The notes under the pieces: model-generated | Told to the model about the DNA's origin: nothing | The model's database searches: none | What the model saw: the letters and a program-made list of their open reading frames with translations, nothing else | From: a virus | Lineage: Duplodnaviria > Heunggongvirae > Uroviricota > Caudoviricetes | Length of the DNA stretch: 4,674 nucleotides | Virus record (IMG/VR): IMGVR_UViG_2744054872_000006 | Location: 1 to 4,674 of that record | Reading direction: 5' to 3' (one strand) | In this document: piece after piece, positions 1 through 4,674 of the stretch | Position numbering within the stretch: position 1 is the stretch's first letter | Layout: each line of letters opens with the position of its first letter | Program-made: the position numbers and the translations under genes

Positions 1-1263
1 TCAGCGAACGTAAATAGTGCCGCCGTTCTCTTTTTCCCATGCATCGCTACGTGCATAGCAAACATCGAGAAGTCTTCTTGCCGCAGTTTCCTCTAAACCC
101 AATTCGACAACCAACTGCTCATGACGGCGGGTAACCACATCAAACAGGGTATGCAGCCCTTTAGTTGCCAGATCATCAATGAATTCCGGTTCGAACGGCA
201 GCTCTGCATCTGCCAACATAACCTCTTGCGCCCACTCAACTCGACGGACCAATTCCGGGCGGCGGCTTTCCATCTCTTTACAGATCAATTCATGGAAGAA
301 CTCTACCCAACCTTCCGGCTGAAACTCGCGGAAAATTGCCAACGGCTGGAAGTTTGGCATCAACCATTCGTTGATTCGGATATCAATGGCATAGCCCATG
401 TCGCAGCAGAACTGATAAGCAAAGTCCAGCTTAGAAACGATATAAGGACGCTCGTTATTGAACTCTTTAGGCGATGAGATCCCATAAGCCAGGAGGCGCG
501 GGAAGAAGGAGATTTGCCCTAACGTCGGATGAAGTTTGCTTGCAGGGAAACGGCGCTCAGTAATGCCATACATTTCCTTCTTGAGCGTCGCAAATTTGGC
601 ATTCTCATTAACCAGCGCGGTAACCTCTGCTTTTTTATTAGCAAATGCCACGCGCGCCTCGCTTGCATCTTTAATAGTTTTTTTGAGCTGTTGGTTAAGG
701 TCGGCGACCTGCTTACGCAGTTCCTGTCGCTCGCTTTTAGCTTTGTTATAGCGTTTCTCAAGGTTAAAAGGATCAAGTTTCATGATCTCTTTATATTGAG
801 ATTTTAGCGTTGAAATCTGTAAGTTCCGCAGTTCAACCATCGCGGTCATTTCATTGAGTTTTGTTTCCAGCTCAATGCTTATACGTTCGGCATTATCAGC
901 ACGCTGGTTGGCGTCATGCGTCGCATCGTCGATCGCGTCCTGTTGCTGGCGTTTCAAATGTTCAATTTGCAGCTGAAGCTCTTCAATTTCTTTACCCTTC
1001 AGACCGAGATCCAACTGCATATTTTCAGCTGCATCTACCAGGGAGTTATGGCTATCAGCTTCTGCGTTATAAACATCAATAAGCTGTGCGTGAAGCATCT
1101 CCGCTGACTGAACCGCATTATCAAAAAAACGTGCTGTGAGGTCATCACAACTAACGCGGCGTTGCGCGGCCCGGATGTTCTGGATAATGGCCGGAATACC
1201 GGCATTCAGGACATCAGGGATAGATACATTTTCGATTGATTGGTTTTGTGCTGAAGTGCTCAT
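1..1263 (-). CDS. Hypothetical coiled-coil protein (420 aa) with a long heptad-like, charged N-terminal half and a globular C-terminal domain; function unknown
   Basis: Long uninterrupted ORF with ATG at 1263-1261 and TGA at 3-1. The N-terminal ~230 aa are rich in E/K/Q/L repeats typical of coiled coils. The start lies 1 nt downstream of the stop of the 72-aa ORF (TGAAATG on the minus strand), suggesting translational coupling. The window begins exactly at this stop codon. No family recognised. Confidence 0.7.
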   Translation of the reverse strand: MSTSAQNQSIENVSIPDVLNAGIPAIIQNIRAAQRRVSCDDLTARFFDNAVQSAEMLHAQLIDVYNAEADSHNSLVDAAENMQLDLGLKGKEIEELQLQIEHLKRQQQDAIDDATHDANQRADNAERISIELETKLNEMTAMVELRNLQISTLKSQYKEIMKLDPFNLEKRYNKAKSERQELRKQVADLNQQLKKTIKDASEARVAFANKKAEVTALVNENAKFATLKKEMYGITERRFPASKLHPTLGQISFFPRLLAYGISSPKEFNNERPYIVSKLDFAYQFCCDMGYAIDIRINEWLMPNFQPLAIFREFQPEGWVEFFHELICKEMESRRPELVRRVEWAQEVMLADAELPFEPEFIDDLATKGLHTLFDVVTRRHEQLVVELGLEETAARRLLDVCYARSDAWEKENGGTIYVR

Positions 1264-1264
1264 T

Positions 1265-1483
1265 TCAAAGTTCCGTATTAGCTTGTGCTTCGGTCATTTT
1301 TCCTAAGTATGAAGGTGGAAGGACTACGCAATTTGTATCCAGTCCCTCACCTATGGCAGCCTGTAAAATTCTGGCTAAGGTGAGTCTCTTGTTGCGATAC
1401 CTGGTGATGACATGCCTGATACCGCCGGTCGGCGTAACAAAGGCGATCAGCCAGTAGTGATATTTCCGTCGGAATGGCCACAT
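1265..1483 (-). CDS. Small hypothetical protein (72 aa), possibly co-translated with the downstream 420-aa protein
   Basis: ATG at 1483-1481 is preceded on the minus strand by AAGGTG (plus 1488-1493) with a 4-nt spacer. The TGA stop at 1267-1265 sits 1 nt from the ATG of the 420-aa gene. Co-directional with all other genes. Protein family not recognised. Confidence 0.45.
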   Translation of the reverse strand: MWPFRRKYHYWLIAFVTPTGGIRHVITRYRNKRLTLARILQAAIGEGLDTNCVVLPPSYLGKMTEAQANTEL

Positions 1484-1487
1484 AGTG

Positions 1488-1493
1488 CACCTT
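1488..1493 (-). promoter_or_regulatory. Shine-Dalgarno-like sequence (AAGGTG) for the 72-aa ORF
   Basis: The minus strand reads AAGGTGCACTATG, placing a purine-rich GGTG core 4-5 nt upstream of the ATG at 1483. Confidence 0.4.
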
Positions 1494-1506
1494 GTAGATT
1501 GCTCTG

Positions 1507-1534
1507 ATAAAAAACATGATGAGTGTACATCACG
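1507..1534 (-). terminator. Candidate intrinsic terminator or RNA hairpin between the glycosyltransferase-like gene and the 72-aa ORF
   Basis: The minus-strand RNA would read CGUGAUG-UACACU-CAUCAUG followed by UUUUUUAU: a 7-bp stem including one G:U pair, a 6-nt loop and a U6 tract. The stem is AU-rich and therefore weak. It lies in the only sizeable AT-rich intergenic gap (1484-1580). Confidence 0.3.
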
Positions 1535-1580
1535 TTTTAAAAATAATGAATTATTAGAGCAATATTATTCTGATTCTCGC

Positions 1581-2267
1581 TCAAAAAAATGAGCTGATAA
1601 GGGGAAGCCAATCCTCTGACACTTCGCGAGGTCGCGGTTTGCCGTGGAAAAAGATTATTCGGCAGTCTTTTGGTAATGCCCCATTCCCCCTGGAGTAACG
1701 CGCGCTCGCATATTTCGAACCAGGTTCCACAACATCGGCCTTGTAACTTACAAACCATCCCGGATACAGATCCTGAAATGCTGGTGTATCATCACCCATA
1801 ACCTTCCGCAAAAACCCCTGATCACCCCAGCATTCAGTAGTAACACAACGAGCAATCCAACCTTCCGGATCTTGCCAGAATGCACTCCAGATATGCGCTT
1901 TTACACTATTTGGTATCCACAGGGCACCGCTGCCACGATATTGTGGATGGTAAAAATCCCTAAGCATGGTGAAGCTGGTTGGTGGATTCTCTAGGATTGG
2001 GCGTATATCACCGGCAATAACCGTGTCCAAATCCAGATAGAACAGATCATCGGTTATATCCGGTCGGAACAACTCGATTTTCGCCCACCAGCCACGGCAC
2101 TTTTGCCACTGGTTGATCAATGGGACAACTTTGACGCCAGGTACATGTAAACGCTTCAGGTCTGTCAGGCAAATAATTTCATAGCCTTTTGGCAGTTGAT
2201 TAACCAGCCACTGCACATCGGAAGCGTTATAGTCACCACCAGAGCGAAGAACTAAAGCAATCTTCAT
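1581..2267 (-). CDS. Putative GT-A-fold glycosyltransferase (228 aa) with a DXD motif, GT8-like
   Basis: ATG at 2267-2265 overlaps the TGA of the upstream phosphatase gene (ATGA, 4-nt overlap), with GGTG 4 nt upstream. The protein has an N-terminal [12 protein letters not shown] strand, a [18 protein letters not shown] segment (YLDxDxxV...DI, like the DXD nucleotide-sugar/metal site of GT-A enzymes) and a C-terminal [10 protein letters not shown] resembling the HxxGxxKPW motif of GT8 enzymes. Assignment is by motif memory only. Confidence 0.6.
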
Positions 2268-2956
2268 GCTGCACCATCACCTTTCACTTTCATCAATGTC
2301 AGGTTTCCGCAAAATACGGCACCTGTGTCGATATAATGCTGATTCCAGAATGTCTTCGGGCTTTTCACCGGAGTGTGACCAAAGATAAAACGATCTGCGC
2401 CAGAAATTTCGCCACCAATATCATCCATCGAATCACTGATACGCTCGCGCGCCCAGACAACGTTGAAAAGCGGCACCTCCTTACCGAATTGATATTCATT
2501 ATCCGGATAGTCGGCATGGGCTATAACGATAGTTTCTTGCCCGGTGTTCAACTCAATGATATAGGGCAGTCGTCTTACCAACTCCACCAGCGCCCTGGCT
2601 AATATTTCCTGATCAGCGTCCAGCATGAAGAACCATTGACCGCCATTCATTAGCCAGTTATTCACGTTGCCATCTGGACTTAACGCATCAATCATCAGCC
2701 GCTCATGGTTCCCCATCACTGCCCTGAACCAGGGCATCTGCAATAGTTCCAGACATTCGACATTTTCAGTACCGCGATCGATAAGGTCGCCGACCGATAT
2801 CAGTAAATCCTGCGCCGGGTCAAAATCCACACGATGGAGTTCGGACATCAGTCTGGTGTAGCAACCATGCAGATCACCAACAACCCAGACATTCCTGTAT
2901 TTGGTACCGTCGATACGGTGATAAATTGTGGGTGCCATCATGTATTCTTCAGCCAT
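2264..2956 (-). CDS. Serine/threonine protein phosphatase, calcineurin-like metallophosphoesterase (lambda orf221/NinI-type)
   Basis: Contains the PPP-family motifs VVGDLHGCY (GDxHG), VGDLIDRG (GDxxDR) and GNHE, plus a downstream FGHTP. It aligns along its whole length with lambda phosphatase as I remember it ([56 protein letters not shown]). The true start may be the ATG at 2941 or 2938 rather than 2956: these would give ATGA or TGATG overlap with the upstream stop and an N-terminus matching lambda's length. Confidence 0.9.
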
Positions 2957-3564
2957 TCTTTAAGAGTCATCTGCGGAATACCTCCCATTTTCCCGCATGA
3001 AACAACGTCAATCTGTTCACGCGCAGACTGGAATAACAAAGGCAGGTGACTTAGATTTTTTGGCGTGCCGCCGGAGTGAACGCGTGGTTCTTGTGTAGCG
3101 TCAACGCCCACCAGGGCGACATGTTTGAATCCGATATGGAAAGCCAGGTTCAGAGCACCATATGCACTATTGCCGCTGGCAATTTCATTCTCATCTTCAC
3201 AAAGGCCGAAATGTGCGGACCAGCGCCACGCCCACCACTCGGGAGAATTCGTATTTTTTGGCTCCGTGCCGCGCTCAGCCACACGACGGAAGCACAGAAC
3301 GCCATCTCTGACTTCACGTTCTTTAACATCGGGTAGTGCCATGCAATAACAAACACCACGGCGACGGCGGCCACGACCAACGCGCCGCATATTGTCTGGC
3401 GATGGATCAAGGGTGAAAAAATAAGAAGCGCGGTTAAGCCAGTCGATGGCCCCATTGACCGCTATAATCGGCACTCCGCGCGGCGCAACAAAGTTTGCGG
3501 CGCTTGGGCCACTGCCGACGATAATAACGCGATCACTGCCTCTAAATTTATTCTTGGGAAACAT
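2938..3564 (-). CDS. GSGPS-motif Rossmann-like transferase, paralog B (208 aa); GT42 sialyltransferase-like / DUF115 (MptE/Maf-like) candidate
   Basis: ATG at 3564-3562 with AGGAG (plus 3577-3581) 12 nt upstream. Carries VIIVGSGPS near the N-terminus, then IIAVNG, then [26 protein letters not shown]. This pattern recalls Campylobacter Cst-II (AGNGPSL ... RCN ... TSGxxxxAxAxALGYKxIYLxGID). It is clearly paralogous to the adjacent upstream gene. Contains an arginine-rich insert, [16 protein letters not shown]. Confidence 0.7.
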
Positions 3565-4124
3565 TGAATTGCACTGCTCCTACTTGCATTCAAAATATGT
3601 AAATCTGCGTGTTTTTTGCGGGTATCCAGGAACTGCTGTTGCCATTTTGAAATAGACACCTGCGTTGGATTCCGTAGGGCTTGAGGGTGCGCGCCATGCC
3701 AATGAAGGCCGTTTTGCAGAGAACAGTCATAGCCGACTAATACCACTACTTCAGCCCCTGATTCAGCAGCCAGACTGATAGCCTGCGCGCCGCTATTTAC
3801 CCCTTCCGCCGGTCCACAATATCGCCTGTACTCCAACGAAAATGATTTCGCCGCCGCCAGGTTGGCTGTCACTTTGCGGAATCTCCCTCCCGGTATGGTG
3901 GATCCGTATTGCTTCCACCATGACAAATCACCGGCGTATAAGGCATAAATGTCATCGAACATCTGCCAGGAATTGTTAACCGCGATGATTGAACAGCCAG
4001 TTTTTTCTATAGCAGCACAGTCCTCACGAGTGAGTGACGGACCGCTACCGACACAAAAAACAGTCCTAGTCGCCCTGGGTGGTATGTTCATTCTCAGCTG
4101 CAAATTCAGCCTCCAGGCGAGCAT
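3462..4124 (-). CDS. GSGPS-motif Rossmann-like transferase, paralog A (220 aa); GT42 sialyltransferase-like / DUF115 (MptE/Maf-like) candidate
   Basis: Carries FCVGSGPSL, IIAVNN and NSGAQAISLAAESGAEVVVLVGYD motifs collinear with paralog B. The start is uncertain: the ATG at 4124 has no SD, and the internal ATG at 4091 (Met12) gives an N-terminus of similar length to paralog B. The 3' end overlaps paralog B by 103 nt in another frame. Confidence 0.7.
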   Translation of the reverse strand: MLAWRLNLQLRMNIPPRATRTVFCVGSGPSLTREDCAAIEKTGCSIIAVNNSWQMFDDIYALYAGDLSWWKQYGSTIPGGRFRKVTANLAAAKSFSLEYRRYCGPAEGVNSGAQAISLAAESGAEVVVLVGYDCSLQNGLHWHGAHPQALRNPTQVSISKWQQQFLDTRKKHADLHILNASRSSAIQCFPRINLEAVIALLSSAVAQAPQTLLRRAECRL

Positions 4125-4221
4125 TCATTTCAGCGATTACCGGGTCCACTACAGCATCTGCTTCCTGTTCATTACGCGGCATGATCGATGCCAGCGATTC
4201 ATAATTAGCCTTGAATGACAC
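4066..4221 (-). CDS. Candidate small acidic protein (51 aa from GTG at 4221, or 38 aa from ATG at 4182), not in the supplied ORF track
   Basis: Hand translation of the minus strand gives VSFKANYESLASIMPRNEQEADAVVDPVIAEMNARLEAEFAAENEHTTQGD, ending at TAG 4068-4066. GGGAG (plus 4229-4233) lies 7 nt upstream of the GTG at 4221-4219. The ORF fills the otherwise empty gap between the VRR-NUC gene and paralog A, and overlaps the annotated 5' end of paralog A. Confidence 0.25.
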   Translation of the reverse strand: MSFKANYESLASIMPRNEQEADAVVDPVIAEMNARLEAEFAAENEHTTQGD

Positions 4222-4240
4222 GATTATTCTCCCGATGTTA

Positions 4241-4267
4241 ATGTGCGCTATATCAAAGAGCGCATAT
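4241..4267. promoter_or_regulatory. Imperfect inverted repeat (ATGTGCGC-N11-GCGCATAT) just downstream of the VRR-NUC stop; possible operator or RNA hairpin
   Basis: 8-bp arms with one mismatch and an 11-nt TATAT-containing spacer, seen directly in the sequence. Not followed by a clean U-tract on the minus strand, so not a canonical terminator. Confidence 0.2.
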
Positions 4268-4287
4268 GCACTAATTAATTTATTATT

Positions 4288-4674
4288 TTAAGCAGCATAC
4301 AACCACTTGTCGCCGTTCAATACATGCTCAATAGCCTCACCCTTTTTAAGGCTTATGTATTCCAGGATGGCGGTTATCGCTTGTTCTGCACCATACGCAA
4401 GAACGACGTAGTAACCTTCCTCTCTAAGCCTGCGCATCCAGGCGATCTGCTCTTTCGTCGGGGCTTTACCATTTGGTTCTTTAAGCTCAATTCGCATGCC
4501 GTGATAAATACCGCATGCTTTATCGAGACTCATGTCCGGATAACCTTTTTTCTGCCCTTCAGCCTTCATTTTCCCGGCGGTTGCTTTTGAACGTTTCCCT
4601 GGCTTTGTTGAATAAATCGAACTTTTGCTGAGTTGAAGGATCAGATCACGCATCCTCCCGACAACACAGACCAT
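4288..4674 (-). CDS. VRR-NUC domain protein (PD-(D/E)xK-type nuclease, 128 aa)
   Basis: The segment GYPDMSL...GMRIELKEPNGKAPTKEQIAWMRRLREEGYYVVLAYGAEQA matches the VRR-NUC pattern: a PD motif, then E-x-K, then a Q-containing helix and a hydrophobic strand. TAA stop at 4290-4288. The ATG is the last 3 nt of the window, so the start cannot be checked against upstream sequence. Confidence 0.75.
   Translation of the reverse strand: MVCVVGRMRDLILQLSKSSIYSTKPGKRSKATAGKMKAEGQKKGYPDMSLDKACGIYHGMRIELKEPNGKAPTKEQIAWMRRLREEGYYVVLAYGAEQAITAILEYISLKKGEAIEHVLNGDKWLYAA

Follow-up and report, generated by a model that had tools for sequence, protein, structure and literature searches.

A putative three-enzyme glycosylation module in the pmg operon of a P1-like phage-plasmid, apparently independent of the phosphatase gene that it harbours

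Introduction

What do three putative transferases and a Ser/Thr phosphatase do together in one phage operon? The question is raised by four consecutive minus-strand genes in a 4,674-nt stretch of viral DNA (IMG/VR record IMGVR_UViG_2744054872_000006), the whole of which is termed the window hereafter; coordinates are window positions unless another record is named. Comparison of positions 1-4600 with P1, P7, RCS47, SJ46 and others by megablast revealed nucleotide identities of 98.2-98.6% (98.4% to the P1 record AF234172) with the same genes annotated, and the gene order matches that of P1 in GenBank, pmgM'-pmgN-pmgO-pmgP-ppp-pmgQ-pmgR-pmgS. By homology, the block is identified as the C1-repressed pmgN-pmgO-pmgP-ppp-pmgQ operon of a P1-like phage-plasmid. 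An initial annotation of the window had placed it in a phage nin-like region; instead, it belongs to the P1 pmg region, where the P1 record gives tail/baseplate genes and pmgL/pmgM on one side, and pmgR/pmgS and pap as further neighbours. Only ppp itself is nin-like.

Few phages are used as much in bacterial genetics as P1, yet no function has been assigned to its pmg genes. In the searchable literature, no published function was found for the pmg block or for the combination of pmgO, pmgP and pmgQ (O, P and Q), which appear only in essentiality tables and transcriptome mentions. The genes pmgO, pmgP, ppp and pmgQ are all non-essential, both by CRISPR interference (CRISPRi) and by single-gene deletion (PMC10695390, which for the deletions cites its ref. 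73, taken to be Gonzales 2022, PMC9024508). PHROGs labels PmgO an 'alpha-2,3-sialyltransferase', PmgP unknown, Ppp a 'NinI-like phosphatase' and PmgQ a 'glycosyltransferase'. The initial annotation knew of no described system of this kind. This holds for the function of the combination, but the cassette as such is already named in P1, annotated in PHROGs and shown to be dispensable.

Here we report that O, P and Q recur jointly as a module in many unrelated phages, and that the phosphatase gene does not accompany them there. We propose, with somewhat less than even confidence, that the trio glycosylates protein in the cytoplasm late in infection, the acceptor probably being a virion protein.

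Composition of the O-P-Q module

O, P and Q adjoin in the same order, and with no phosphatase gene, in the Citrobacter rodentium prophage phiNP and in a Pseudomonas prophage, and an Ochrobactrum prophage contains P-Q only, likewise with no phosphatase gene. A first scan of viral contigs with the PmgP alignment returned P1 copies only; the exhaustive profile search yielded 546 representatives of the PmgP family, several of whose long members are fusions. A scan of one genome per species, with partners sought by hidden Markov models (HMMs) built from our own alignments, gave 18 loci. Partner genes lie nearby in most loci with enough flanking sequence, mostly adjacent and, in Pseudescherichia, within about 6 kb. 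The linked loci come from Enterobacterales, Pseudomonas, Ochrobactrum, Zhongshania, Methylophilaceae, Microbulbifer, Brevundimonas, Sinomicrobium (Bacteroidota) and Longimicrobiales. Among isolated phages, Q is present in all 27 records that have P, including IME392/EP_H11 and the jumbo phages XacN1, CM1, RAS14 and Xoo-sp13. The module also occurs in reduced forms, as O only, O+Q or P+Q.

Natural fusions join the same families to each other and to methyltransferases. These are O-P (P0291), P-Q (P0300 and P0365), Q-P (P0384), Q-P-methyltransferase (P0348) and methyltransferase-P (P0386), and in the jumbo phage RAS14 a TylF-type sugar O-methyltransferase is fused to Q. No phosphatase was found among the natural fusions. 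The slot between P and Q is occupied by a class I methyltransferase gene in Zhongshania and Alloalcanivorax, by a GT4-like gene in IME392 and by ppp in P1. Altogether four methyltransferase families (class I, FkbM, Methyltransf_24 and TylF) are fused to the module or lie beside it, FkbM and TylF being typical sugar O-methyltransferase families. Additional glycosyltransferases, a GT4-like enzyme and a phrog_854 glucosyltransferase, accompany the module as well. Because the O-P, P-Q, Q-P-methyltransferase and TylF-Q fusions join them, O, P and Q probably act in one sugar-building pathway, and the gene content of the module is that expected of an assembly line for a glycan. In the 116-kb coliphages IME392 and EP_H11, a DUF7217 protein with a GTP-binding domain (phrog_289; IME392 L104, 5788-6504) is encoded directly before O-P-GT4-Q.

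PmgQ, a putative GT8-type glycosyltransferase

The initial annotation had taken the product of pmgQ for a GT-A glycosyltransferase with a DXD motif. Profile comparison, an AlphaFold (AF2) model and Foldseek agree with this and point to a GT8-type enzyme. The protein carries D36, DLD79-81, GDQ148-150 and FHGKPRP207-213. In an alignment of 42 PmgQ sequences, D36, D79-L80-D81 and P211 are invariant, and G148-D149-Q150, H208 and G209 are nearly invariant. The PmgQ profile matches the Skp1 alpha-galactosyltransferase Gat1 (6mw5; E 2e-8) as well as GlyE and glycogenins, and the alignments bring together the DxD, GDQ and His motifs. The AF2 model has a predicted local distance difference test (pLDDT) score of 95.8, and the top matches listed for it by Foldseek in the PDB are almost all GT8 enzymes, led by Gat1, glycogenin and GlyE (E-values down to 1.8e-8, template modelling (TM) scores of about 0.55-0.6); LgtC is also among its structural matches. 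In a Pfam search at E<=1, PmgQ matched no family, including PF01501 (Glyco_transf_8), which had been suggested for it.

Similar to the GT8 enzymes glycogenin, Gat1, GlyE, LgtC and WaaJ/WaaO, PmgQ combines the GT-A fold with a DxD motif, a GDQ motif and a C-terminal His-x-G-x-x-(K/R)-P motif. However, it shares only 11-17% identity with the solved GT8 enzymes, is about 30-100 residues shorter than they are and forms a phage family of its own. Judged only by its modelled fold and its motifs, PmgQ is a divergent GT8-like, DxD/His retaining-type GT-A transferase. The T run at 1590-1596, before the pmgQ stop codon, is T7 here and T6 in the reference P1, shifting the last few codons. PmgQ therefore has 228 aa in the window against 233 aa in P1, and the change lies past the conserved FHGxPRP...W region.

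PmgO and PmgP, a putative pair of the Maf/MptE/GT42 type

Both products of the remaining transferase-like genes had been guessed to resemble GT42 sialyltransferases or DUF115 (MptE/Maf-like) enzymes, and the guess is supported. Foldseek searches place the PmgP model near Maf, MptE and the sialyltransferases Cst-I and Cst-II, and it has the Rossmann-type fold of that group. Against PF01973 (MptE-like/DUF115), PmgO and PmgP of P1 score 23.4 and 20.9 bits, below the gathering score of 34.6; the family is matched at E<0.01 by 32 of 34 PmgO relatives and by 30 of 34 PmgP relatives, and some relatives have PF01973 in precomputed Pfam tables. PF06002 (CST-I), the other family proposed for them, gave no match to PmgO or PmgP in the Pfam search. 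NCBIfam yielded no family for PmgO, PmgP or PmgQ, and the PDB gave no match to the PmgP sequence or profile. The PmgP-like half of the fusion P0291 is listed under PF27901 in a precomputed Pfam column, an accession that gave no match in the Pfam scans; PmgP may thus have a curated family.

The two proteins had also been called paralogs. Alignment of the two families by hhalign supports this (probability 98.2%, E 4e-14, over 162 columns), but the pairwise comparison does not, since BLASTP aligns only the GSGPS segment (E 0.003). PmgO and PmgP are thus distant paralogs, at the profile level only, and PmgO is assigned to the Maf/MptE/GT42 fold via its homology to PmgP. Both contain an N-terminal GxGPS nucleotide loop and a second, (S/T)G...GxD motif. 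In PmgO, G28-P29-S30, S111-G112 and G131-Y-D133 are invariant, and S27 and N110 are nearly so. In PmgP, P20, G131-N132-S133, G153 and D155 are invariant, and S18, G19, S21 and V154 nearly so. For PmgO, these motifs can be matched to their Cst-II counterparts in an alignment that by itself is not significant. Invariant histidines, H141/H143 of PmgO and H173 of PmgP, are candidates for a catalytic residue corresponding to His188 of Cst-II.

Unlike Maf and Cst-I/Cst-II, PmgO and PmgP form a heterologous pair that is at times fused. Each consists of a catalytic core alone, about 200 aa long, without the flanking acceptor-binding domains of Maf and without the lid and membrane tail of Cst-II. From these likenesses we infer glycosyltransferase activity for the pair. 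To our knowledge, E. coli K-12 produces neither sialic acid nor pseudaminic or legionaminic acid, and the donor of PmgO/PmgP must therefore differ from those of Maf and GT42 enzymes. Cytidine monophosphate-3-deoxy-D-manno-octulosonic acid (CMP-Kdo) is, as far as we know, the sole CMP-activated ulosonic acid of E. coli K-12. Because no other such donor is known to us in K-12, genes for nucleotide-sugar synthesis were not noticed next to the module, and the named hosts recovered are all apparently Gram-negative and thus apparently diderm, CMP-Kdo may be put forward, speculatively, as a candidate donor of the Maf-like pair. The Kdo-III transferase WaaZ gave faint matches to PmgP (NCBIfam E 0.11; hhalign probability 14%, at the nucleotide-binding motif); a kinship with WaaZ was dropped as support for a Kdo donor, as the similarity is not significant.

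Genomic position and candidate acceptor

At least six HK97-like prophages (Ochrobactrum L003, Pseudomonas L004, Zhongshania L095, Martelella L110, metagenomic L111 and Onishia L112) carry the module, or a part of it, with the major capsid gene on one side and head-tail connector or head-closure genes on the other. Of the 80 viral contigs in which a related capsid gene occurs, 14 have a PmgO-like gene 170-530 nt behind it. The capsid, lysis-terminase and P1 positions of the module are all those of late or lytic-phase genes, unlike the positions of lysogenic-conversion genes. PmgO-like genes with neither P nor Q stand behind the capsid gene in the IMG/VR contigs L119-L124, L129, L162, L166, L169, L181 and L185.

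Outside prophages, O, P and Q are interleaved with Big_1 genes on the chromosomes of Pseudescherichia (L105, 2241-15359) and Serratia plymuthica (L107, 674-9102), and also in L089-L093. There, PmgO adjoins, on the same strand, Big_1 Ig-like surface protein genes, and one of these encodes an inverse autotransporter. These loci may be islands for a glycosylated adhesin or for holin/lysozyme-dependent secretion. Two small Big_1 proteins in them have no obvious signal peptide, a Big_1-RCC1 protein is also present, and the Serratia island encodes a holin and a phage-type lysozyme as well. Like cytoplasmic adhesin glycosylation clusters (Gtf/Gly enzymes of serine-rich repeat (SRR) adhesins, the autotransporter heptosyltransferases Aah/TibC, HMW1C), the chromosomal O, P and Q genes stand among genes for large surface proteins, here Ig-like ones, and GlyE is a structural neighbour of PmgQ; apart from GT8, however, the enzyme families differ, no dedicated export machinery is evident for O-P-Q, and the likeness is one of gene order alone. 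Big_1 domains were also considered as the acceptor in phages. An HMM of Big_1 built from the chromosomal neighbours detected none in the phage loci it was run on, nor in P1 nt 1-48000 and 73116-89714, tblastn of a Big_1 neighbour against 50,697 phage records gave no match, and the idea was dropped.

Based on these comparisons, we propose the following scheme. The functional core would be three soluble cytoplasmic enzymes, of which PmgO and PmgP probably act as a pair and PmgQ as a predicted Mn-dependent retaining-type glycosyltransferase. Expressed after loss of the repressor and late in infection, they would draw on the nucleotide sugars of the host to assemble a short glycan on a protein, most likely a structural protein of the virion, and in other phages accessory enzymes would O-methylate or extend the glycan. 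We infer a protein acceptor as the most economical one because of the late positions, the adjacency to Big_1 genes and the protein-modifying structural neighbours Maf, Gat1, glycogenin and GlyE. Non-essentiality of all four genes is expected of an accessory modification. Of the roles suggested in the initial annotation, protein glycosylation fits best.

Several observations weigh against this scheme. The P1 virion proteome paper reports no glycosylation, and these genes are absent from its text. The P1 operon is not beside the capsid gene but between tail/baseplate genes and pmgR/pmgS; the modules of phiNP and Alloalcanivorax lie between lysis and terminase genes, a typical moron site, and that of IME392 lies near replication genes. 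The adjacency to capsid genes could reflect a mere permissive insertion site in a late operon. Ser/Thr-rich C-terminal capsid tails were considered as a signature of glycosylation. Capsid proteins encoded next to the module end, for example, in GSLTAS or GSLSES, and those at loci lacking it also have short tails, some with GSGS, so that in this highly redundant sample the C-terminal tails are not clearly different. The Big_1 adjacency is, in view of the negative searches, confined to the chromosomal loci among those covered. On the enzyme side, the Foldseek E-values of PmgP are weak (2e-3) and the P1 proteins stay below the PF01973 gathering score. In addition, GT8 also holds the lipopolysaccharide (LPS)-core enzymes WaaJ, WaaO and LgtC.

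The scheme would parallel the glycosylation of mycobacteriophage virions and that of flagellin by Maf. Freeman and co-workers (2023, Cell Host Microbe; cited in PMC12894461) reportedly found that mycobacteriophage glycosyltransferases, with methyltransferases implicated, decorate capsid and tail-tube subunits. Their study reportedly saw little evidence of virion glycosylation outside actinobacteriophages. Both systems are sets of phage-encoded glycosyltransferases that are accessory and vary between related phages. However, the mycobacteriophage system belongs to actinobacteriophages and is demonstrated experimentally, whereas O-P-Q, with its Maf-like pair and GT8-like enzyme, belongs to Gram-negative phages and is a candidate system proposed from its genes. 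More tentatively still, O-P-Q may be the core of a widespread virion-glycosylation system in Gram-negative phages including P1, with a short glycan that is O-methylated elsewhere and possibly derived from CMP-Kdo, and with a co-option for Big_1 adhesins in Enterobacterales. If true, this would be the first such system described in Gram-negative phages, and the picture of virion glycosylation as largely confined to actinobacteriophages would change. It would also provide a tractable E. coli system for the roles of particle glycans (stability, shielding from proteases and antibodies, adsorption, evasion of surface defences), with relevance to phage therapy and P1-based delivery vectors, and its enzymes, compact and soluble and possibly transferring Kdo or hexose, could serve cytoplasmic glycoengineering. 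Independently of this, the comparison defines a three-gene module that is conserved and has Rosetta-stone fusions, sets the phosphatase apart from it, and turns the label 'putative morphogenetic function' into a directly testable hypothesis.

A second explanation, which we consider unlikely, is that the trio modifies an envelope glycolipid (LPS core, enterobacterial common antigen (ECA) or a lipid-linked glycan) at the cytoplasmic face and thereby masks the phage receptor, so that superinfection would be curbed or fewer progeny lost on cell debris. P1 adsorbs to the glucose of the LPS core, GT8 is the family of LPS-core glucosyl- and galactosyltransferases, LgtC is among the structural matches of PmgQ, and the apparently Gram-negative hosts and the moron slot of phiNP and Alloalcanivorax would suit such a target. 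However, the similarities of PmgQ to E. coli WaaJ (hhalign probability 43%) and of PmgP to WaaZ are not significant, and no transmembrane segment is predicted in PmgO, PmgP, Ppp or PmgQ, in which hydrophobicity compatible with a membrane span was sought. Expression argues in the same direction: the P1 operon is C1-repressed and lies behind a late promoter, and so would be silent in lysogens, where masking would pay, and late expression leaves scant time for replacement of the surface LPS. Proteins are indicated instead by the recurrent location of the module between capsid and connector genes and by its position beside Big_1 genes on the same strand. If the target were nevertheless LPS, the module would represent a new kind of late-expressed receptor-modifying function.

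It is improbable, in our estimate, that PmgO and PmgP are MptE/TPK-type pyrophosphokinases or other nucleotide-dependent transferases that make, with PmgQ, a phosphorylated or glycosylated small molecule. The resemblance to MptE would allow it, but the methyltransferases, extra glycosyltransferases and fusions of the module argue for glycan assembly.

The phosphatase Ppp as a separate passenger

Ppp had been recognized as a lambda-type phosphatase, and the protein is, by its motifs and profile scores, an intact enzyme of the lambda protein phosphatase (PP) type. It matches PF00149 (E 1e-15; 59.2 bits against a cut-off of 21.5) and the NinI-like family phrog_246 (E 2e-113), and the motifs GDLHG, GDLIDRG and GNHE are all present. 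With the PrpA-type model it scores 279 bits, and it is PrpA/PrpB-like, yet under the equivalog cut-offs of NCBIfam. Its identity to lambda PP is 64% according to the P1 annotation. Ppp thus shares the metal-binding motifs of the PPP family, PF00149 and phrog_246 with lambda PP (NinI) and PrpA/PrpB; lambda NinI, however, is encoded in the nin region, and Ppp instead inside a glycosyltransferase operon of a P1-type phage.

A phosphatase gene between pmgP and pmgQ was found only in P1/P7-type elements and in a Pantoea P1-like element, where the identity is 59%. None of the non-P1 copies of the O-P-Q module that were compared contains ppp. The P1-like Cronobacter phage JK004 has pmgM-N-O-P-Q-R-S without it, Q beginning 40 nt after P, and phage D6 has a ppp homolog (L108, 4990-5682; 85% amino acid identity) without O, P and Q. 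The neighbours of the D6 gene are small genes like those of the lambdoid and P22-like phages mEp213, phiV10 and ES18, which suggests how ppp travels between phage types as a separate cassette. Because O-P-Q recurs without ppp, JK004 has none and the D6 gene is elsewhere, ppp is taken as a lineage-specific insert. In our scheme, it would have entered the variable P-Q slot in the P1 lineage, where Ppp is translationally coupled to the trio and functionally independent of it.

The initial annotation had read the four genes as one module, with protein glycosylation and dephosphorylation aimed at host defence signalling among the candidate roles. As far as gene content can tell, the trio does without ppp, and a functional unit of four genes is not supported. 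That all four nevertheless form one system with a cooperating phosphatase has little probability in our estimate. The ATGA overlaps that couple ppp translationally on both sides in P1 and P7 would suit it, as would a position kept since before the split from the Pantoea element, but the distribution of ppp, the fusions without a phosphatase and the methyltransferases or GT4-like gene in the P-Q slot elsewhere speak against it. A defence or anti-defence assignment was sought with PADLOC and dropped, as only insignificant matches were obtained (E 0.02-0.03).

Glycosylation of phage DNA or nucleotides against restriction, also among the suggested roles, is very improbable. Phage DNA glucosylation offers a general precedent, and the folds are of nucleotide-binding types, but ordinary restriction enzymes cut P1 DNA, which is protected by the Dar proteins and methylation, the DNA glucosyltransferases known to us are GT-B enzymes and neither GT8 nor Maf-like, we know of no base-hydroxymethylating enzyme in P1 and saw none among the genes adjacent to the module, and in most phages the module stands among head genes, not replication genes.

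Operon organization and control sites

The coordinates and overlaps of the four minus-strand open reading frames (ORFs) given in the initial annotation are exact by the ORF list and the sequence (Table 1). pmgO and pmgP overlap by 103 nt (3462-3564), and ppp and pmgQ by the 4 nt of an ATGA (2264-2267). The overlap of pmgP and ppp depends on the ppp start, being 19 nt from the first ATG (2956), 4 nt (ATGA) from M6 (2941) and 1 nt from M7 (2938); the later two starts suit the N-terminus of lambda phosphatase better. With pmgN, which had not been listed, the overlapping chain comprises five genes, pmgN overlapping pmgO by 59 nt (26 nt with a pmgO start at M12). The 103-nt overlap is not shortenable, because sequence inspection found no in-frame ATG, GTG or TTG between the pmgP ATG and the conserved PmgP strand. 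Its source is the C-terminal tail of PmgO, which is not conserved among PmgO homologs in the family alignment. The run of overlaps indicates, at the level of gene layout, one transcription and translation unit, which is the part of the one-module claim that stands. Short same-strand overlaps are commonplace in phage operons, and the run is in itself unremarkable.

Table 1. Features of the window with their positions and assignments.
Feature	Position	Strand	Description
OpmgRa	1547..1563	-	C1 operator directly 3' of the pmgQ stop; ATTGCTCTAATAATTCA; consensus search and P1 annotation
pmgQ	1581..2267	-	228 aa; putative GT8-fold retaining-type GT-A transferase, third of the trio, last gene of the operon; phrog_1962
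ppp	2264..2956	-	230 aa; predicted lambda-type Ser/Thr metallophosphatase of the PPP family; likely start 2941 or 2938
pmgP	2938..3564	-	208 aa; second, more strongly conserved putative Maf/MptE/GT42-fold transferase; GVDA and SHLP motifs
pmgO	3462..4124	-	220 aa; putative Maf/MptE/GT42-fold transferase, first of the trio; GSGPS, NSG...GYDCS and HWHGxH motifs; phrog_4603 (E 4e-74)
pmgN	4066..4221	-	51 aa; first gene of the chain, no assigned function; ORF, phrog_2350, P1 annotation
Control region 5' of pmgN	4264..4319	-	Predicted sigma-70 promoter PpmgN and C1 operator Oppp (former Op83); from L001 10264-10319
pmgM 3' part	4288..4600	-	VRR-NUC nuclease-like, truncated by insertion sequence; PF08774 VRR_NUC (E 2e-5), P1 annotation
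End of IS5-family (IS903-like) element	4601..4674	.	Within pmgM; P1 homology ends at 4600; outside the module

pmgN has BLAST matches only in P1-like loci. It was found essential by CRISPRi and non-essential by deletion (PMC10695390); as pmgN heads the operon and overlaps pmgO, a polar or operon-level effect in CRISPRi is possible. A programmed -1 frameshift giving a PmgO-PmgP fusion in P1 was considered and is unsupported. pmgP is in the -1 frame of pmgO, the minus-strand overlap holds the slippery heptamers T_TTC_CCA (3561) and A_AAT_TTA (3549) just past the pmgP start, and the hypothetical product would resemble the natural O-P fusion P0291. However, the heptamers are not present in the homologous pmgO/pmgP overlaps beyond P1-like elements, and the 86 nt downstream of them fold no better than shuffled sequences (z 0.34).

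Features of the control regions were mapped from the P1 GenBank record (L001). A promoter-like site, GCGACA-17-TAAAAT, is located at 4313-4285. The operator Oppp was not recovered by a C1 consensus search allowing 3 mismatches and rests on the P1 annotation. The late promoter LPpmgL lies further upstream of pmgN in the P1 record. At the other end of the operon, the operator at 1547-1563 has 3 mismatches to the C1 consensus, against a chance expectation of 0.05, and it is kept in JK004. The P1 record gives two C1 operators and PpmgR just past pmgQ, and OpmgRa marks the end of the operon and the start of a separately controlled pmgR-pmgS unit.

Beyond the module, the window ends in the terminal repeat of the inserted element, and positions 4601-4672 match IS903 ends in other records. 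The same junction of pmgM and the insertion sequence (IS), annotated 'IS5 family transposase', is found in many E. coli P1-like plasmids of 88-98 kb and in one from Cronobacter, and the IS end marks the window as a variant of a P1-like phage-plasmid. The 128-aa ORF at 4288-4674 is a chimera of IS sequence and the 3' part of pmgM. A few kb to either side of the operon, the P1 record contains Dbn (L001, 16058-16599), a 'possible glycosyltransferase', and Pap (5422-5928), a putative acid phosphatase.

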